Below, one piece after another: positions 4,951-31,668 of a DNA stretch of 64,000 nucleotides (positions are counted from its first letter, which is position 1; every line of letters begins with the position of its first letter). This stretch comes from Escherichia phage KEP4, in the sequence record PP047754. One strand, 5' to 3'. Under the pieces are notes generated by a model. That model worked only from the letters and a program-made list of their open reading frames with translations. It made no database searches and was not told where the DNA came from. The position numbers were made by a program, and so were the translations under genes.

Positions 4951-7900
4951 ATGGCCAACAAACCAACACAGCCTCTTTTCCCTTTGGGTTTAGAAACTTC
5001 TGAGTCTTCGAACATAAAAGGCTTCAACAACTCCGGCACTATTGAGCATTCCCCTGGTGCCGTAATGACATTTCCTGAAGATACTGAAGTTACAGGTCTT
5101 CCATCTTCTGTGCGTTACAATCCTGATAGTGATGAATTTGAAGGTTATTACGAAAACGGTGGTTGGTTGTCTTTGGGTGGCGGCGGAATACGCTGGGAAA
5201 CGCTCCCTTACGCTCCCTCTAGCAATTTGTTAGAAGGTCGCGGCTATCTCATTAATAATACGACAGGGACTTCTACAGTGGTTCTCCCTTCCCCTACGCG
5301 CGTTGGTGATTCAGTTACAATTTGTGATGCCTATGGGAAATTCGCGACGTATCCATTGACTGTATCTCCAGCGGGAAATAACCTGTACGGCTCCACCGAA
5401 GATATGACGATATCCACCGATAACGTGTCGGCGACTTTCACTTGGTCTGGTGCCGAGCAGGGTTGGGTTGTTACATCTGGTGTTGGCCTCGGCCAAGGTC
5501 GTGTGTACAGTCGTGAGATTTTCACTCAAATTTTAGCATCTGAAACAAGTGCTGTCACTCTCAATACTCCACCAACAATCGTGGACGTGTATGCTGACGG
5601 AAAACGTCTTGCGGAATCCAAATATTCACTAGATGGGAATGTAATCACTTTCGACCCTTCTTTACCTGCCAGCACTGAATTGCAGGTAATAGAATATACT
5701 CCGATTCAGTTGGGCACTGGCGGCGGGGGTTCGGGCGCTTCTGCAATCACCTGGATTTACAATGGCGGATCCGCTATTGGTGGCGAAACCGAAATAACGC
5801 TAGATATCGTTGTAGATGATGTTCCGGCTATTGATATAAACGGGTCTCGTCAGTACAAAAATCTTGGATTCACGTTCGACCCATTGACGAGTAAAATCAC
5901 TCTGACGCAAGAACTGGAACCAGAAGATGAAGTTGTTGTGGTTATAAATGGGACACCAAACATTTATAACCAAATCGATCGTTCTTTACAGGAAGTTGCT
6001 CGCGCCTACAATTTTACAAATGCTCAAGTTATTTTGAGCAACGATTATACTTCTGTTCTGGATAATAAAGTCGTTATTTATGATACGACATCCCAACGTT
6101 CTTGGGGGATTCCATCTGGAATCCCAGCAGGTTCTACAGTGGTTTCCGTCAATGGGGATCAACTGAAGTACAAAAATGGATCAACTGAAACCACTGTTAC
6201 ATTGGTGAGTGTACCAGGTAGTGCAGAGAAATTGAAGAACGATCTGGCTTCAAACTCTGGTTCAGGTATGTTGAAAACTTCTAGAGGTGATACCGTAGAA
6301 GAAGAATTGACTTTCATTAATCAGAATATGGTCGTTCAAATTTCAGATTTCGCGAGTCTTAGAACTTTAGTGCCAGCCACAGCGGGTATCCGAGTCAAAT
6401 TGAAAGGTTATTATTCTGGTTCTGAAATCGGTGGCGGAGAATTCATTTCTGTCGCTGGAGATGCTGTTGATGATGCTGGGATGATTGCTCGAGTGTCAAG
6501 CAGCTTCTATTGGAAGAGAATTATCGACAAACACATTACTCCTGGCATGTATGGCATCAAAGGGAATCTTCCAGAAGATCCGGCAGTGAAACTGAACGCT
6601 ATGTTTACGGCTGCGGCTGCGGCTAACGCTTATGTCTTACTGAACGATGTCGACACTCTGGTCTGTAAAAGCCCTGTCGTGATTCCAGCACATTCATTAG
6701 TGTACGGCAACAAACGAACTATACTGAAACGTGATGCATCGTTGTCATATGCTAATGATTTCTTGACAATTATGAATGATTCATATGTCAAGGGGATCTA
6801 TGTTGATGGTAGCCGTTTAGATTCTCAGACTCCTCTAGAAGCAGTTTTGGTGCGTATCGCTGGGAATGTAACTATCCATAAGAGTGAGATCCGAAACAAT
6901 GCTGGCTATGGCGTTGTTGGTAACGCAGTCCCTGGTATTCGTATCACCAAGAACATTTTTTCCAACTTCGCCAAAGGTTGTGTAGCCATGTTTGGCGACG
7001 GAACAGCGACGAGTGATGATCTGCAAATTAATGATAACAGATTCTTTAACCTGGGCGCGGGAACCATTTATGTTGGCGGTTACTCAAACTTCCTTGTCGA
7101 CAAAAACGTCGGAAGAGGCACTTACGTGGGTTCTCCAGGAAACCGTCTGTATGTTGTGACCAATACTAACGGGACTATCACCCAAAGCGCTGGGCCAGAT
7201 TTTGGGCCATTGAAAACGGGTATGTTCTTTGTATTGCCTGGTGGTTCTGAACATATGATAACGGCGGTCAACAGCCTTACCAGTGTGACAGTAACCCCAC
7301 CACCGCCGTCGAACGCCACAGTTCGTGCAATCGCAGGGACAGGGGATCTTCTGGGCATCCAATCATGCTCCTACGGCACCATCAGCCGTAACAACCTGAC
7401 CGATTGCGTGACTTACGGAACTGGTGGAGGCACGATGGAGGGGAGCACTCTGGGTTGCAATTATGTCACTTGGGAAGACAACTTCATCCGCAACACAGGT
7501 AAGAACGGAATCAACGTCGGGCAATCAGGCGCTGGGGTTGCCACGTGTTCTATCCTGAGGAACACTCTGATACAGGTTGGTAACGGCGGTCAGGGTGTTG
7601 GCCCAGCGTATCTTCTGCCTTGGTTCGATACGCTAGGTATCGCTCTGTATCAGGGAAACCCAGGTTATATGGCGAATATGGACGTCAGTGATAACAACGT
7701 CTCTACATGGTCTGGCGATCTGAATGACGGCGCTGCTTGGTTTGGTATGAGCGGTTGTACGGAAGCCACTGTGACTTGTACAGGCAACAAATCTTCTGGT
7801 TATTCCGACGGCTATGTTCGTGGAGATATATTAGAAGTCACGTTGACAGGTTATGGTACAGGGGCGGCTGCGACTTCATTCGTTAGTGATGGTGAGTCTA

Positions 7901-23806: not shown

Positions 23807-24487
23807 ATGAGCAATATGTCAGAAAGGTTACTTGCGACGCTAGACGCGGTGACTGCCAGAGATGAAGTTGGTAAGGAGGCGATGGAAGCCGTCTCTCCAC
23901 GTCCAGGTATTGACTTCGATGAAAAAACGGGCGAGTGGTTTGGTGAACGCCCAGAAGGTTATCAGCCGATTCCAGAACCTCCATCATTGGAAGATATCGC
24001 GTCCAAAGAATCCAAGGTTCCGGAGTTTGCGGATACTGATGCCACAACAGATTACAAGCGGATACGCGACACAACATATGCCATGCAAGAAGCCACGATG
24101 TTCATGATGGGGCAAGCTGCTAAATTAGCTGCATCTACCGAAGCCCCAAGAGCGTTTTCCGTGTTTCGTGAATTGGGCGAACTCATGCGCGGCCTGAACA
24201 AAGACCTGATGGAAAACCAAAAAACCATCAAAGCTGTGACAGGGGATAAAGAACCGCCGACTGATGACACAACCGTGGATGTTACCACTTCACCCGACGG
24301 GACCACAACAGTATCTGTTGGGAAGAAAGCGAGATCTTCGCGCGATTTATTGAAAACGATCGAAGATGCACGCCGCCGCGCTGAAGAACGCGCCCAGGCA
24401 AAAGCCACCCAACAAACCGAAGATGAAATTATCGACGGAGAAACGGTTGACGTGAAGGAAGAAGACGATGGCGTATCAGAAGCGTGA
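23807..24487 (+). CDS. terminase small subunit (T4 gp16-like)
   Basis: GGAGGA SD 6 nt before ATG 23807 (track start 23801 is TTG); segment MQEATMFMMGQAAKLAAS...FRELGELMRG resembles T4 gp16; directly upstream of TerL and overlapping it. Confidence 0.7.
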   Translation: MSNMSERLLATLDAVTARDEVGKEAMEAVSPRPGIDFDEKTGEWFGERPEGYQPIPEPPSLEDIASKESKVPEFADTDATTDYKRIRDTTYAMQEATMFMMGQAAKLAASTEAPRAFSVFRELGELMRGLNKDLMENQKTIKAVTGDKEPPTDDTTVDVTTSPDGTTTVSVGKKARSSRDLLKTIEDARRRAEERAQAKATQQTEDEIIDGETVDVKEEDDGVSEA

Positions 24488-26678
24488 TATAGAATATGCT
24501 CCGATAAAAACGGGGTTTAAAATCGACGACGTGAAATTGCGTATGGACCAGACGTTCATGCGCAAGCCTTCTGTGCGCGCTCCACGAGTCGAGTTGATGC
24601 TAACAGATGAACAAGAAGACGAATTTGTTGAATGTTCAATGGACGCGCATTACTTCGCTGCCAATTACTATAAGATAACGACAATCGATAAAGGCTTTAT
24701 CCTTTTCGATATGCATGATTATCAGAAACAATTATTTCACGATTTTCAAGATTATCGTTTCAATGCCGTTGTCCAGGCGCGTCAGTCCGGTAAATGCGTC
24801 CGTGGTGATACTCTTGTTTATGTCTATGATACAGTCAGTCAACAAGAGTTGCATCTCACCATAGAAGAGCTTCACAAGCGCTTCGAAGGACCGAACCATG
24901 CTGTGCCACTGAATACCATTGGCAACCACAATAAGTTTGTAGACAGCCGTTTCGGGAAACGATATTTTGTTGAGTCCGACACTGGCTGGGTTCCGGTTAT
25001 TGCCGCTCATAAAACGAAAGAATACGCTGAATACGTGGTCAGGACTGAAACCGGACGCACAATTCATGTCGCAGATGAGCACATGTTCTTCAATGAATAT
25101 GGGCGCGAAGTATTTGCTAAAGACATGGAGGCCGGAGATGCCATAATGACCCAGGAGGGAATAGAATTCATCTCTGAGATCTGGGAGACTGGTGAGTACC
25201 ACCACATGTATGACTTGCAAGTCAAGTCCAGCGATCAACGTTATTACACGAATGGGTTCCTCAGCCATAATACCACGGTCGTGGCTGCGTTTCTTCTTTG
25301 GTATGCGATGTTCCACTCAGACAAAGAAATCGCGGTACTGGCAAACAAAGAGAAACAAGCGATTGAAATTCTTGACCGTATCAGGAAGGCGTATCAGGAC
25401 CTCCCATTCTTCCTTCAGCAGGGTTGTGAGAAGTTTGGTTCTACACTGATAGAGTTTGAGAACGGCTCTAAGATATATGCTTATGCAACGTCTTCGGACT
25501 CTATTCGTGGTCGTTCTGTATCTCTCTTGTACGTGGACGAAGTCGCATTCATCGAAAATGACTTTGAATTTTGGGAATCAACATTCCCAGCGATCGCATC
25601 TGCTGATACTTCACGTTGTATTCTGACCAGTACTCCGAAAGGCCAGCGAGGGTTGTTCTATGATATCGTCACCAAAGCAGACCCGCGCCATCCGCAATAC
25701 AACGACTTCCATCTTACCGAAGTCCCTTGGTACAAGGTTCCGGCGTACACCAAAGACCCTGATTGGGAAACCAAACAACGCGCTCGTCTGGGGGATGCCC
25801 GTTTTGACCAGGAATTTGGAATCAAGTTCCGTGGTTCTGTAGGTTCATTGATACCAGCCAAATGCTTGGATAAAATGACATCCAAGTTATATCGAGAGCC
25901 TAATGAATTCACCAAAATTTACAAGGAATATGACCCGCAACGCATCTACTTCGGGATTGCAGATACGGGGAAAGGTGTTGAAGGAGATTATTCGGTTCTG
26001 ACAATTCTGGATATAACGGAATACCCGCATGTCATAGCGGCCAAGTACAGGAACAATACAATACCTCCGATGATGTATGCATACACGATAGCCGATATGT
26101 GTACTGAATACGGGGAATGCCCTGTCCTTGTAGAAACCAACAACGACGTTGGTGGACAGGTTATTACGATCTTGTATCAAGAAATTGAGTATCCAGAGAT
26201 CATATTCACGTCGACGGATAACAAAGGGACAGGGAAACGGATTGGTGGTCGTAAACCAGAGCCAGGCATTAACACCAACAGGAAAGTGCGATCTATTGGT
26301 TGTGCTAACCTGAAAGCGCTTATTGAGAAAGAAATGTTGGTGATTGAAGATCAAGACACGATAGATGAACTCAGCACATTCGTGTTCCGTGGTGCGCGTT
26401 ATGAAGCAGATGATGGATGTCACGACGACTGCGTTATGCCGTTGGTATTATATTCTTGGGCAGTTAAACAAGAATGGTTCAGTGATCTGACTTCTACCAG
26501 TATTTCTCAAGACATGAGAAATAGAATGTCTTCGACTGAGTCACAACAAGTATTCCCGTTTGGTGGTTTAGTCGTGGGAGACACTCCATCTGGAACTGAG
26601 CATCTCCCTGGGTTCGGTGGTGTTCAAGTCTTCGACGAACGTTCAGGGATGACCATGGATGAGTGGTTTAAGAATTGA
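24468..26678 (+). CDS. terminase large subunit (T4 gp17-like), intein-containing
   Basis: extein reads ARQSGK/TTVVAAFLLW (T4: SRQLGKTTVVAIFLAHF), downstream YVDEVAFI Walker B-like and nuclease region; 736 aa vs ~610 for T4. Confidence 0.9.
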   Translation: MAYQKRDIEYAPIKTGFKIDDVKLRMDQTFMRKPSVRAPRVELMLTDEQEDEFVECSMDAHYFAANYYKITTIDKGFILFDMHDYQKQLFHDFQDYRFNAVVQARQSGKCVRGDTLVYVYDTVSQQELHLTIEELHKRFEGPNHAVPLNTIGNHNKFVDSRFGKRYFVESDTGWVPVIAAHKTKEYAEYVVRTETGRTIHVADEHMFFNEYGREVFAKDMEAGDAIMTQEGIEFISEIWETGEYHHMYDLQVKSSDQRYYTNGFLSHNTTVVAAFLLWYAMFHSDKEIAVLANKEKQAIEILDRIRKAYQDLPFFLQQGCEKFGSTLIEFENGSKIYAYATSSDSIRGRSVSLLYVDEVAFIENDFEFWESTFPAIASADTSRCILTSTPKGQRGLFYDIVTKADPRHPQYNDFHLTEVPWYKVPAYTKDPDWETKQRARLGDARFDQEFGIKFRGSVGSLIPAKCLDKMTSKLYREPNEFTKIYKEYDPQRIYFGIADTGKGVEGDYSVLTILDITEYPHVIAAKYRNNTIPPMMYAYTIADMCTEYGECPVLVETNNDVGGQVITILYQEIEYPEIIFTSTDNKGTGKRIGGRKPEPGINTNRKVRSIGCANLKALIEKEMLVIEDQDTIDELSTFVFRGARYEADDGCHDDCVMPLVLYSWAVKQEWFSDLTSTSISQDMRNRMSSTESQQVFPFGGLVVGDTPSGTEHLPGFGGVQVFDERSGMTMDEWFKN
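24795..25271 (+). mobile_element. mini-intein (159 aa) inserted in the TerL Walker A P-loop between GK and T
   Basis: starts Cys (CVRGDTLV, block A), contains GRTIHVADEH (block B-like), ends FLSHN followed by Thr +1; no homing-endonuclease domain. Confidence 0.75.
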
Positions 26679-26681
26679 TCA

Positions 26682-26688
26682 CTAAATA
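26682..26688 (+). promoter_or_regulatory. late-promoter-like box CTAAATA upstream of the sheath gene
   Basis: immediately after TerL stop; about 40 nt before ATG 26731. Confidence 0.4.
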
Positions 26689-26730: not shown

Positions 26731-28626
26731 ATGGCAACTCAAAGCTTCAGCGTTGCGCCGTCCGTTCAGTGGACTGAGCGTGATGCCACGCTTCAGACGT
26801 CCCCGTCCGTTGTTGTTCAGGGCGCGACCGTCGGCAAATTTCAATGGGGTGAAGTTGAACTTCCAGTGCTGGTGACTGGTGGTGAGACAGGTTTGGTGAA
26901 GAAATTCTTCAAACCCAACGACAGCACCGCGACCGATTTTCTCGTAATCGCGGACTTTTTGTCTTACAGCTCTATGGCATGGGTGACCCGTGTTGTTGGT
27001 CCTCTGGCCAAGAACTCTGTTACCAAAGGTCAGACAGCGATTGCGATCAAAAACAAACTGGATTTTGAAACAGCAAGTCCTTCGGCGTCCATCACTTGGA
27101 CTGGTCGTTATCCAGGTTCCCTGGGTAATGATATTGCTATCAATGTTTGTGATGCTGCTGGGTTCTCAACTTGGGAATTCCGTAATAACTTTGCATACGC
27201 ACCTCAGTCTGGTGAATTCCATGTAGTTGTCGTAGACAAAGTTGGTCGCATTACCGACTCTGCTGGCGCGGTCGGTCAGGTTGACCGTATCTCCGTTTCT
27301 GGTACGGCTACTGCTGCTGGCACCATCAGTGTGGCAGGTGAAGATATCGCATATCTGGATACTGATACTCCAGCCGATTTGGCAACCAAAATCGGCACAG
27401 CGCTAACTTCCCTGACAAGTGTTTATTCTTCTGTTGTCGTGAAGTCCAACACTGTCATCGTGACACATAAAGCTATCGGTCCTCAGGCCGTTACAGCTAT
27501 CGTTCCTGATGATAAAGGACTGACTGCAACAGCCGTAATCACTACTGTTGGCGCTTCTGGTTCCATCATTGAAAAATACGAACTGATGCAGAACACCCAG
27601 GGTTCTAAAAAATCCGATGGCGCGAATGCGTACTTCAAAGACGTGATCAACGATACTTCAAATTGGGTGTATACCTTCGCGAGCGAACTGGTTGCAGGTG
27701 TCGTTGAATTAGAAGGCGGCGTAGACGATTATAACATCAACCGCGTGGCAGCTATCCAAGTCTTGAACAATGCTGAAGCATATGATGCGAAGCCAGTATT
27801 TGCGTACTGTGAAGAACTGATTGAGCAACAAGCATTGATCGACTTATCTACTGAGCGAAAAGATACTGTATCTTTCGTATCCCCGCTCCGTGATACGGTT
27901 GTTGGCAACCGTGGTCGTGAAATGGATGATGTCGTTGCTTGGCGTGAAAGTCTGGTGCGCGACTCCTCCTATTTCTTCATGGACGACAACTGGGCATACG
28001 TGTACGATAAATACAACGATAAGATGCGTTGGATTCCGGCTTGTGGCGGCACCGCAGGTGTTTGGGCGCGAAGCATTGAAATCGCGGGTATCTACAAATC
28101 TCCGGCGTTCCACAACCGTGGTAAATACAACAACTATAATCGAATGGCGTGGTCTGCGTCTTCTGATGAACGTGCTGTGTTGTACCGCAATCAGATCAAC
28201 AGCATCGTAACCTTCTCCAATGAAGGCATCGTCCTGTATGGTGACAAAACTGGCCTGACCCGCCCGTCGGCGTTTGACCGCATCAACGTTCGTGGTCTGT
28301 TCATCATGGCTGAGCAGAACATCGCCGCAATCGCCAAATACTATCTTGGTGAGAACAATGACGCGTTTACACGTGGTCTGTTCAGCAATGCGGTTCGTCC
28401 ATATATTCGCCAGCTGGCGAATATGGGCGCGATTTACGATGGTAAAGTCAAGTGTGATGAAGATAACAACACTGCTGATGTCATTGCGGCAAACCAAATG
28501 GTTGCTGGTATCTGGTTGAAACCGGAATACAGCATAAATTGGGTGTATCTTGACTTTGCTGCAGTTCGACCAGATATGGAGTTCAGCGAAATCGAATCCG
28601 GTGGCGGCATCGTTGCTGCTTCATAA
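26731..28626 (+). CDS. tail sheath protein (T4 gp18-like)
   Basis: GKFQWGEVELP near the N-terminus as in T4 gp18 (GKFQWGPAFQ); 631 aa; synteny; track start 26698 is TTG. Confidence 0.85.
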   Translation: MATQSFSVAPSVQWTERDATLQTSPSVVVQGATVGKFQWGEVELPVLVTGGETGLVKKFFKPNDSTATDFLVIADFLSYSSMAWVTRVVGPLAKNSVTKGQTAIAIKNKLDFETASPSASITWTGRYPGSLGNDIAINVCDAAGFSTWEFRNNFAYAPQSGEFHVVVVDKVGRITDSAGAVGQVDRISVSGTATAAGTISVAGEDIAYLDTDTPADLATKIGTALTSLTSVYSSVVVKSNTVIVTHKAIGPQAVTAIVPDDKGLTATAVITTVGASGSIIEKYELMQNTQGSKKSDGANAYFKDVINDTSNWVYTFASELVAGVVELEGGVDDYNINRVAAIQVLNNAEAYDAKPVFAYCEELIEQQALIDLSTERKDTVSFVSPLRDTVVGNRGREMDDVVAWRESLVRDSSYFFMDDNWAYVYDKYNDKMRWIPACGGTAGVWARSIEIAGIYKSPAFHNRGKYNNYNRMAWSASSDERAVLYRNQINSIVTFSNEGIVLYGDKTGLTRPSAFDRINVRGLFIMAEQNIAAIAKYYLGENNDAFTRGLFSNAVRPYIRQLANMGAIYDGKVKCDEDNNTADVIAANQMVAGIWLKPEYSINWVYLDFAAVRPDMEFSEIESGGGIVAAS

Positions 28627-28633
28627 AATGACC

Positions 28634-28660
28634 AACCCCGCTTCGGCGGGGTTTTCCTTT
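28634..28660 (+). terminator. rho-independent terminator (aaccccgc-ttcg-gcggggtt + TTCCTTT)
   Basis: 8-bp GC stem, ttcg tetraloop, U-tract after the sheath gene. Confidence 0.85.
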
Positions 28661-28683
28661 GTCTTATTGATTTGAGTTATTGA

Positions 28684-29142
28684 ATGATATACGCATACAA
28701 AATTGAAACGATAACTAATGGAAAGGTCTACATCGGTGTGACCAATCACCCACAACGAAGATATGATCAGCATTTTGCGAATGCTTTTCATCATGGAGTC
28801 CAAAGTGAATTGTATGATGCCATGCGTAAGTATGGAACATCTGGATTTACTTTCGTTGTAATTGCTCAGACCGATGAAGTCCATAAATGGGAATTAGAGA
28901 AGCAACTCATCGCTCAATATAATTCTTATGAGATGGGTTACAACATGAATAAAGGCGGTAATGATGGAAGTCATATGCTGGGTAAAACTGCAGCAAAATT
29001 GACATCTACAGGTGAACACATTGGTCTTGTTTCTCTCATAGATCCCCGTTGGGAATTGTGTGAAATCGAACCCGTTTTAAGCAATGTTGACCACGGATTT
29101 GATTTTTCTTCCATGAAGATTAAAAGATTGACGACTAATTAG
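28684..29142 (+). CDS. GIY-YIG nuclease (free-standing, homing-endonuclease-like; 152 aa)
   Basis: IYAYK...KVYIGVT...RRYDQH...E...YNMNKGG matches GIY / YIG / Arg / Glu / Asn catalytic pattern; inserted between sheath and tube genes. Confidence 0.7.
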   Translation: MIYAYKIETITNGKVYIGVTNHPQRRYDQHFANAFHHGVQSELYDAMRKYGTSGFTFVVIAQTDEVHKWELEKQLIAQYNSYEMGYNMNKGGNDGSHMLGKTAAKLTSTGEHIGLVSLIDPRWELCEIEPVLSNVDHGFDFSSMKIKRLTTN

Positions 29143-29172
29143 AATTGTGTACTCTTATTTGGAGATATAAAA

Positions 29173-29706
29173 ATGGCGACAGTCAATGAGTTTCGCGCAG
29201 CCATGTCACGAGGGGGCGGCGTACAACGCCAACACCGCTGGCGTGTGACTGTAAACTTTCCTTCTTTTGTTGCTGGTTCCGACACAATTCGTGACGTGTC
29301 CTTGCTGGCTGTAACCACCAACACCCCAACAGGTCAGCTGGGCGAAATTCTGGTGCCCTGGGGTGGTCGTGAACTTCCGTTCCCAGGGGATCGTCGTTTC
29401 GAAGCGCTTCCTGTGACGTTCATTAACGTGGTGAACAACGCTCCATACAATGCTTTTGAAGTGTGGCAGCAATTCATCAACGGTAGTGAAAACAACCGCG
29501 CCAGCGCGAATCCAGATGATTATTTCCGTGATATCATCATGGAACTTCTGGACGCGAATGACAACGTGACTAAGACATGGACTTTGCAGGGTGGCTGGCC
29601 TCAAAACCTCGGCCAATTGGAACTCGATATGTCGGCAATGGACTCTTACACACAGTTCACTGTCGACTTGCGTTATTTCCAAGCCGTTTCTGACAAGTCA
29701 TTGTAA
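29173..29706 (+). CDS. tail tube protein (T4 gp19-like)
   Basis: 177 aa; C-terminal WTLQGGWPQNLGQLELD resembles T4 gp19 GLWPTNVGELQLD; GGAG SD. Confidence 0.8.
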   Translation: MATVNEFRAAMSRGGGVQRQHRWRVTVNFPSFVAGSDTIRDVSLLAVTTNTPTGQLGEILVPWGGRELPFPGDRRFEALPVTFINVVNNAPYNAFEVWQQFINGSENNRASANPDDYFRDIIMELLDANDNVTKTWTLQGGWPQNLGQLELDMSAMDSYTQFTVDLRYFQAVSDKSL

Positions 29707-29719
29707 TGTCCTCGGTGCT

Positions 29720-29738
29720 GGGGGAATGTTATTCCCCC
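29720..29738 (+). terminator. hairpin gggggaat-gtt-attccccc after the tube gene (weak terminator or attenuator)
   Basis: 8-bp perfect inverted repeat; no clear U-tract. Confidence 0.4.
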
Positions 29739-29773
29739 TCACTAATTACAAGAAAATGTTGAGGACTTAGATC

Positions 29774-31497: not shown

Positions 31498-31668
31498 ATG
31501 AGCGCAATTGATATCGTTCGTGCAGTAATTGACGGTGACACTGAAACTGCTGTTGCAGAATGCAACATGGAACTTGATGCACGTAGTCAAGAACTATTAA
31601 ACCAAGGCACCGCATATGTTCTGGATTCTATCGCAGCTGATATGAATTCAAACAACAACGGCCAGTAA
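31498..31668 (+). CDS. small prohead core protein (T4 gp67-like position), 56 aa
   Basis: not in ORF track (<60 aa); ATG with GGAG SD, acidic 56-aa product between portal and protease genes. Confidence 0.5.
   Translation: MSAIDIVRAVIDGDTETAVAECNMELDARSQELLNQGTAYVLDSIAADMNSNNNGQ

Follow-up and report, generated by a model that had tools for sequence, protein, structure and literature searches.

GIY-YIG homing enzymes owe their affinity and specificity for DNA to a C-terminal anchor of the helix-turn-helix (HTH) type. In phage T4, the Seg enzymes carry out intron-less homing and marker exclusion from intergenic positions (PMC2988022, PMC1564403), and the DNA-binding regions of phage homing enzymes are typically built as beads on a string (PMC2988022). 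Of the two putative homing endonucleases listed in the genome paper of phage CBA120, one is the open reading frame (ORF) named orf195, described there as a segD homologue (PMC3184105). Here, we analyzed the orthologue of orf195 in Escherichia phage KEP4 (sequence record PP047754), a 152-amino-acid (aa) ORF lying between the tail sheath and tail tube genes in a stretch of 64,000 nucleotides (nt), hereafter called the window. Our results indicate that this short protein has kept an intact catalytic domain of the I-TevI type, has lost the C-terminal anchor of its full-length paralogues, and has been under purifying selection. We put at about even the probability that it is a selectively maintained minimal nuclease of the Seg/I-TevI type, with a putative activity, target and mode of expression, that would serve phage-phage competition by cutting other alleles of the sheath-tube region.

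The gene and its parts are listed below; pLDDT (predicted local distance difference test) is the confidence score of an AlphaFold2 (AF2) model.

28684-29142, + strand: short-form GIY-YIG nuclease gene; 152 aa, ATG start, stop codon included
28684-28965, + strand: I-TevI-like GIY-YIG catalytic domain, residues 1-94, by HMMER alignment to PDB 1LN0/1MK0
28966-28980, + strand: predicted flexible hinge, residues 95-99; pLDDT <50 for residues 95-98, between confident blocks
28981-29079, + strand: single 'TGE-DPRW' beta-module, residues 100-132, GKTAAKLTSTGEHIGLVSLIDPRWELCEIE
29080-29139, + strand: tail, residues 133-152; poorly conserved, low pLDDT, ending in a basic IKR motif

An earlier examination of the letters alone (the sequence-only reading) had described a full GIY-YIG catalytic pattern in this ORF. 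Every motif that it quoted was located, the complete set being MIYAYK, KVYIGVT, RRYDQH, WELEKQ and GYNMNKGG, and profile searches agree: Pfam GIY-YIG (PF01541) matched residues 2-87 (E=1e-10; score 42.2, above the curated cut-off of 22.6), and PHROG 5123 ('homing endonuclease with GIY-YIG motif', a 152-position profile) matched over 152/152 positions (E=2e-93). PHROG 5123 is distinct from the broader homing-endonuclease PHROGs 314 and 7168. The two halves of the GIY-YIG motif, IYAY5 and VY16IG, are separated by 11 residues, in line with the N-terminal spacing of ~10-11 residues that characterizes the superfamily.

The gene has been annotated before and is of a known kind, an ordinary accessory gene of Vi1/CBA120-like phages. 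Dozens of GenBank records contain an annotated protein 100% identical to its 152-aa product, under the labels 'GIY-YIG endonuclease', 'homing endonuclease with GIY-YIG motif' and 'putative homing endonuclease SegD', and the ORF is carried at the equivalent position by ~197 phage records with >=80% aa identity and by metagenomic relatives with 54-60% identity, a recurrence that exceeds chance. The 3-kb sheath-nuclease-tube stretch shares 98-99% identity with Salmonella phages dinky, SP1, Se-S and ISTP3 and many other members of Kuttervirus (Ackermannviridae). The name 'SegD homologue' comes from the annotations of CBA120 (orf195) and vB-SalM-SJ3; the short form has a PHROG of its own. No paper joining Kuttervirus and GIY-YIG was found in the searchable literature, where genome papers merely list the gene.

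HMMER aligned residues Y5, Y16, R26, H30, E72 and N87 with Y6, Y17, R27, H31, E75 and N90 of I-TevI; these six catalytic-site residues are invariant in alignments of 14 and of 124 sequences, and three of them are the Arg of motif B (R26), the Glu of motif D (E72) and the Asn of motif E (N87). I-TevI was also the sole match in the PDB sequence search at E<=1. In the predicted AF2 model, which was built on the 124-sequence alignment (a run with nine sequences gave a pLDDT of 56 and was set aside), pLDDT exceeds 90 over residues 1-93. Among the top 50 Foldseek matches of this model, the I-TevI catalytic domain (1MK0/1LN0) came first (template modeling score 0.82-0.84, root-mean-square deviation 1.7-1.9 A), and UvrC came next; Eco29kI and Slx1 were also present. 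Taken from the alignments and the model, the ORF encodes a GIY-YIG superfamily nuclease with an intact I-TevI-like catalytic domain, and the conservation of all six I-TevI catalytic-site positions bears out the earlier assignment to free-standing enzymes of the Seg/I-TevI type.

Comparable small size and the lack of a long DNA-binding domain recall T4 endonuclease II (DenA), and the DNA of these phages is modified (PMC1564403, PMC5889632), so that a DenA-like enzyme degrading host DNA for nucleotide recycling was considered. However, sequence and fold searches give I-TevI and then UvrC, and a late structural cluster behind a terminator would be ill-suited to early host shutoff; this explanation appears highly improbable. 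Kinship with endonuclease II itself was examined and rejected, as the enzyme was absent from both the PDB sequence search (E<=1) and the Foldseek top 50.

The likeness to I-TevI of the T4 td intron (PDB 1LN0, 1MK0), which is the best match of residues 1-94, covers the catalytic residues and the presence of a flexible linker after the domain. In contrast to I-TevI, the short form is not intron-encoded and has no zinc finger, minor-groove helix or HTH, and the module that follows its hinge is without counterpart in the solved I-TevI DNA-binding domain. With the T4 Seg proteins (SegA-G) it shares a free-standing gene inserted among conserved ones, a slot that is occupied patchily across relatives and the lack of its own promoter. 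It differs from them in being only 152 aa long without a NUMOD/HTH C-terminus, and in a distribution that is not sporadic, the gene being conserved across genera by vertical inheritance.

The sequence-only reading had suspected a truncation. Full-length paralogues do occupy the equivalent locus in other phages: the 230-aa enzyme of Klebsiella phage Menlow and the short form share 57-59% identity over residues 4-132, a figure that drops to ~40% for the barely-type enzymes of 237 aa (Salmonella phage barely; Dickeya phage XF4, 'F-LimII'). Both kinds have the slot, the strand and the TGE-DPRW module in common with the short form but continue for ~95 aa, in which NUMOD3 and HTH each matched weakly and a C-terminal NTTGW is conserved. 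This NUMOD3/HTH-like C-terminus stands where the short form has its tail (residues 133-152), whose aa identity between lineages is 35-68%. Past residue ~96 of the short form, Pfam and NCBIfam gave no match, and the C-terminal NUMOD/HTH DNA-binding region of orthodox GIY-YIG homing enzymes (PMC1564403, PMC2988022) is missing. These comparisons identify the 152-aa form as a truncated paralogue of the full-length enzymes.

The short-form and Menlow genes show nucleotide homology up to 29056 and again from 29128, just before the shared ACTAATTAG, in which the long-form reading frames (Menlow, barely/XF4) end, as does the short form. No counterpart of the intervening 71 nt (29056-29128) was detected in the Menlow gene by nucleotide search, and the originating event may have been either a deletion or a replacement. 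In a neighbor-joining tree of the first 140 residues, the short forms group together and the Menlow-type long forms are their sister; the number of truncation events is left undecided because bootstrap support for short-form monophyly is weak. In a library of 1.84 billion proteins, scores below 1e-30 were reached by only two clusters, those of the short form and of the Menlow type, which marks the short form as a narrow family tied to the sheath-tube locus.

The earlier statement that the protein has no obvious DNA-binding extension proved too strong: the NUMOD/HTH region is indeed missing, but one beta-module is kept at residues ~100-132. This segment, modeled as a beta-hairpin plus a strand with a pLDDT of ~86, has the consensus GKxAAxLxSTGExIGxVSLxDPRWxxxEI and is the best-conserved segment common to the short and full-length forms. 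An exhaustive profile search found the ~36-aa unit four to seven times in tandem in P0012, P0016, P0019, P0023 and P0028, behind SegE-like GIY-YIG or HNH nuclease domains of metagenomic proteins from uncultured phages. The repeat takes the form G.AA...(S/T)TGE.LG.V...DPRW.TGEI, and its metagenomic carriers also include P0031, P0054 and P0102. The multi-repeat proteins are known from metagenomes only, since a tblastn search of isolate phages with a four-repeat query gave matches confined to the Ackermannviridae sheath-tube locus. Searches of Pfam, NCBIfam, PHROG and PDB profiles gave neither a named family nor a solved structure for the module, the sole hint being a sub-threshold match to the YlmC/YmxH (PRC-barrel-like) model. 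By analogy, the module looks like one bead of a beads-on-a-string DNA-binding region, and would then be a putative DNA-binding unit.

In the window, the genes around the nuclease follow the T4 order (large subunit of a T4-type terminase, sheath, tube and gp20-like portal; Pfam, PHROG), and the sheath and tube genes flank the ORF, which thus interrupts the T4-syntenic 18-19 junction as had been proposed. The strong terminator noted before the ORF was also found, as a hairpin at 28634-28653 (8-bp stem with six GC pairs) followed by a T-rich run.

26682-26688, + strand: CTAAATA motif, candidate late promoter upstream of the sheath gene
26731-28626, + strand: tail sheath gene (gp18-like); Pfam Phage_sheath_1C, PHROG 23; its ATG at 26731 is the start used by annotated orthologues
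28634-28663, + strand: sheath-gene intrinsic terminator; stem AACCCCGC / GCGGGGTT, TTCG loop, T-rich tail
29135-29141, + strand: CTAATTA motif, candidate tube-gene late promoter, at the right edge of the slot
29173-29706, + strand: tail tube gene (gp19-like); GGAG ribosome-binding site at 29161-29164

Among relatives, the gap between the sheath and tube genes was found in at least six states.

State a, empty, with a 75-78-bp spacer: Shigella phages Ag3, Gloob and MK-13; Salmonella phage P46FS4; Enterobacter phage EspM4VN; Erwinia phage Bue1
State b, short form alone: the window, Vi01, CBA120 and Klebsiella Taipeivirus; ~197 records at >=80% aa identity; also metagenomic loci L011 and L013, at 54-60% identity
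State c, one full-length GIY-YIG enzyme of 230-237 aa: Salmonella phages barely and SKML-39; Dickeya phage XF4 ('F-LimII'); Yersinia phage YEP3; Klebsiella phage Menlow
State d, long and short forms in tandem: rabagast and the distant metagenomic locus L014; by span or annotation also SJ2, UTK0005, FKP10 and SeF3a
State e, an opposite-strand 262-aa GIY-YIG gene plus the short form: PhaxI
State f, an opposite-strand Hef-like enzyme of ~590 aa: Dickeya Limestonevirus and Salmonella phage Mutine

For state f, the LIMEstone1 paper places the Hef-like enzyme, F-LimVIII, at this slot (PMC3296691). In Mutine (L003 4861-7025), the slot holds a 120-aa ORF without family match and a reverse-strand 591-aa protein, which combines DUF7487 repeats with a DUF559/MTES_1575 restriction-endonuclease-like domain and is 77% identical to Limestonevirus F-LimVIII. 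In Kamild (L004 ~6760-6800), a remnant of a long-form 3' end, LKTTGWQLIRIV (...TTGWQLIRIV), lies upstream of the tube gene and beside a reverse-strand Hef-like gene, a sign that endonuclease genes have replaced one another in succession at the slot.

Because the junction is empty or otherwise occupied in several relatives, the gene is not universally present at this locus, and the universal presence that the sequence-only reading had named as counter-evidence was not observed. The slot was filled in every Kuttervirus and Taipeivirus locus examined, the empty sites lying in Agtrevirus, EspM4VN and Bue1, and the Kuttervirus phages barely, pertopsoe, Se-J and Mutine lack the short form. The comparison of loci marks the sheath-tube gap as a hot spot for endonuclease genes.

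The tandem arrangement of long and short forms in state d raises the question of whether the short form acts or spreads only with a neighboring full-length endonuclease. T4 offers a precedent for such hitch-hiking, as MobE promotes trans-homing of the defunct I-TevIII (PMC2790892). Like the short form, I-TevIII has lost a large part of the protein and persists beside other endonuclease genes (PMC2790892), but it is considered inactive, whereas the short form has an intact catalytic domain and is under strong purifying selection. Dependence on a partner is unlikely, as the short form stands alone in most genomes, the window included, and hitch-hiking does not account for purifying selection at the protein level.

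The edges of the slot are well defined. On the left, the sheath terminator was present in every fetched locus, the empty ones included; on the right, the tube ATG is preceded at ~38 nt by a conserved ACTAA[AT]TAG, again found in each fetched locus, the empty Ag3 and Bue1 sites among them. The empty Ag3 site, ATTGAAAGC followed directly by ACTAATTAG, closely resembles the window sequence before the nuclease ATG joined to that at its stop, and the short-form unit therefore barely exceeds the ORF itself. The stop codon of the nuclease (TAG, 29140-29142) falls within the CTAATTA motif of the tube gene.

The sheath terminator itself has two alleles across relatives. CCCCGC-TTCG-GCGGGG was found in the window, Vi01, the Klebsiella phages, PhaxI, Mutine and Kamild, and GCCCTC-TTCG-GAGGGC in Ag3, barely, rabagast, L011, L013 and L014. 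The short-form genes of rabagast and Vi01 are 99% identical and their terminator alleles differ. From these sequences, it looks as if the barely-type long form arrives with its own terminator.

In the CBA120 genome paper, the late-promoter element had not been identified (PMC3184105). The CTAA[AT]TA motif occurs 14 times on the + strand of the window, and 11 of the 14 occurrences (4907, 8135, 10728, 15916, 22432, 26682, 29135, 29742, 31464, 32682 and 41357) are intergenic, shortly upstream of the next gene start. The distance to the gene is 28-44 nt in most of these 11 cases; for two of them, it was +16 and +213 to the nearest listed ORF and, when remeasured, 49 nt to the probable ATG at 26731 and 34 nt to a 56-aa ORF at 31498. 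Genes preceded by the motif include those for sheath, tube and portal, the portal gene having the same CTAATTA variant (29742) as the tube gene, and the intergenic copies often read CTAAATAcCcc. This distribution makes CTAA[AT]TA a candidate late-promoter element of the phage family.

Between the sheath terminator and the nuclease ATG, no CTAA[AT]TA was found in the window; a scan for sigma-70 promoters returned four sites against 2.8 expected and hence no evidence for a promoter belonging to the nuclease. As the gene has no CTAA[AT]TA motif of its own and only a weak ribosome-binding site (GAG), its expression would need late read-through of the terminator. Sequestration of the ribosome-binding site and start codon, by a fold of 28620-28700 that pairs the sheath-stop region with the nuclease start, was also considered and rejected, the pairing partner not being conserved in Vi01.

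Selection was estimated from the ratio of nonsynonymous (dN) to synonymous (dS) divergence by the pairwise Nei-Gojobori method, in which dS values above 1 are near saturation and the ratios are approximate.

Window vs Klebsiella phage phi1_146029: nuclease dN/dS 0.08, dS 1.32; sheath dS 1.18; tube dS 1.58
Klebsiella phage vs Vi01: nuclease dN/dS 0.07, dS 1.41; sheath dS 1.27; tube dS 1.31
L011 vs L014: nuclease dN/dS 0.09, dS 1.62; sheath dS 0.98; tube dS 0.63

Despite the saturation, the difference between a dN of ~0.1 and a dS above 1 in these alignments is unambiguous. The length of the short form is kept at 151-156 aa down to 54% identity without frameshifts, and signs of decay (relaxed selection, frameshifts, lost catalytic residues) were looked for in the short form and not found. 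The low dN/dS, the constant length and the invariant catalytic residues together point to purifying selection on the protein. An inert remnant, preserved by its place in a packed late operon and by the overlap of its 3' end with the tube promoter, would agree with the truncation relative to the paralogues and with a stop codon lying inside the conserved CTAATTAG motif. Such a remnant is, however, very unlikely: the catalytic residues are all invariant, neither frameshifts nor length changes were seen across 54-100% identity, and a dN/dS of ~0.08 at saturated synonymous sites indicates constraint on the protein, not on the DNA.

In the two between-genus comparisons (window/Klebsiella and Klebsiella/Vi01), the dS of the nuclease matches that of the flanking genes, and the nuclease has thus been inherited with its flanks since before the genera split. 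Within Kuttervirus, the window and Vi01 differ by a dS of 0.12 in the nuclease, 0.61 in the sheath and 0.36 in the tube gene, and comparison of the locus gives a mosaic, with stretches at 100% identity alternating with others at 80-88%. This mosaic fits frequent recombination around the locus and is no proof of homing. Along the sheath (26760-28680) and tube (29280-29760) regions, blocks of 98-100% identity to Vi01, rabagast and barely alternate with blocks of 78-88%, and every Kuttervirus pair examined diverges (80-86%) over the final ~200 nt of the sheath gene.

The long forms present another picture. The endonuclease genes of barely and rabagast are 75% identical at the nt level within flanks of 95-98%, those of SKML-39 and XF4 are 91% identical within flanks of 83-87%, and the barely-type long forms are polymorphic within Agtrevirus, alongside empty sites. 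This partial discordance with the flanks suggests that the long forms are currently mobile. The short form, judged by the same comparisons, looks like a long-term resident, clade-restricted and without sign of current mobility.

Under the reading of a selectively maintained competition nuclease, a full-length enzyme (GIY-YIG domain, linker module, NUMOD3 and HTH) would have lost its C-terminal DNA-binding anchor, leaving the nuclease domain, the flexible hinge, one ~35-aa beta-module and a short basic tail. From a slot fixed between the sheath terminator and the promoter-like motif of the tube gene, the protein would be expressed weakly and late in infection, through transcripts that start at the CTAAATA motif upstream of the sheath gene and run past the sheath terminator. 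In mixed infections, it would nick or cut the sheath-tube region of relatives with a different allele, and this cutting would favor inheritance of the nuclease's own flanking structural genes, by intron-less homing or marker exclusion.

Several observations weigh against this proposal. The HTH-type C-terminal anchor is missing from the short form, and an I-TevI-type catalytic domain with a partial linker is expected to bind DNA poorly alone. The divergence of the nuclease tracks that of its flanks, which indicates vertical descent and not ongoing homing, and the short form was not seen in Agtrevirus, although empty sites occur there and hosts overlap. The dN/dS values, calculated at dS above 1 and near saturation, are only approximate, and the searchable literature holds no activity, target-site or expression data for the 152-aa protein.

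The loss of the HTH-type anchor together with the clade-wide vertical distribution leaves room for a domesticated function. A nuclease that no longer spreads itself could take part in late DNA processing, attack unmodified foreign or host DNA (hypermodified thymidines shielding the phage genome), or exclude parasites; we consider this less probable than the competition nuclease, though the most credible of the rival explanations. It would agree with near-fixation of the gene in Kuttervirus, Taipeivirus and a Serratia-type lineage, with co-divergence by vertical descent at a dN/dS of ~0.08 over dS >1, and with the loss of the C-terminus that gives specificity. A classical homing cycle predicts decay after fixation, and the short form was not seen invading the empty Agtrevirus sites. 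Furthermore, the DNA of Ackermannviridae contains 5-NeOmdU, a modification that stops many nucleases (PMC5889632, PMC6449724, PMC11721090) and could let a nuclease of low specificity spare the phage's own genome. However, no domain points to a second function; the position, the weak ribosome-binding site and the lack of its own promoter are typical traits of selfish seg and mob genes; and the short form is dispensable, since the Kuttervirus phages that lack it (barely, pertopsoe, Se-J and Mutine) do without it. A more specific version, which we hold to be somewhat more doubtful, is that the nuclease domain, hinge and single TGE-DPRW repeat form a domesticated minimal nuclease that serves, as a weapon or a guard, in conflicts with other phages or with parasites, the tandem repeat representing a new modular DNA-recognition unit. 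As such a weapon or guard, the protein may have been kept for hundreds of synonymous-saturating generations without spreading itself.

Upstream of the sheath gene, the ORF of the terminase large subunit (24468-26678) contains an insertion of 159 aa resembling a mini-intein (24795-25271). The insertion starts at Cys110, ends with His-Asn268 and is followed by Thr; it lies inside the Walker A motif, which reads QSGK before it (C...HN) and TTVVAAF after it. The terminase of Erwinia phage Bue1 reads QSGKTTVVAAF, without the insertion. Pfam Intein_splicing matched terminase residues 125-228 with E=4e-6, below the cut-off. Terminase genes of ~2208-2217 nt occur in Ag3, Kamild, Mutine, Menlow and Vi01, and the similar gene lengths suggest that the insertion is widespread in the family.

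Vi1/CBA120-like phages are widely used in the biocontrol of Salmonella and E. coli O157; the gene itself is of little consequence. If confirmed, the beta-module, being without Pfam or PDB counterpart, may be of use to builders of compact I-TevI-type nucleases. The gap with its six states would, if confirmed, provide a compact model locus for work on how homing endonucleases compete in a phage family whose DNA is hypermodified. A homing-type nuclease that lacks its anchor and is yet under strong purifying selection would, likewise if confirmed, be a natural case in which to study how selfish nucleases persist or become domesticated.

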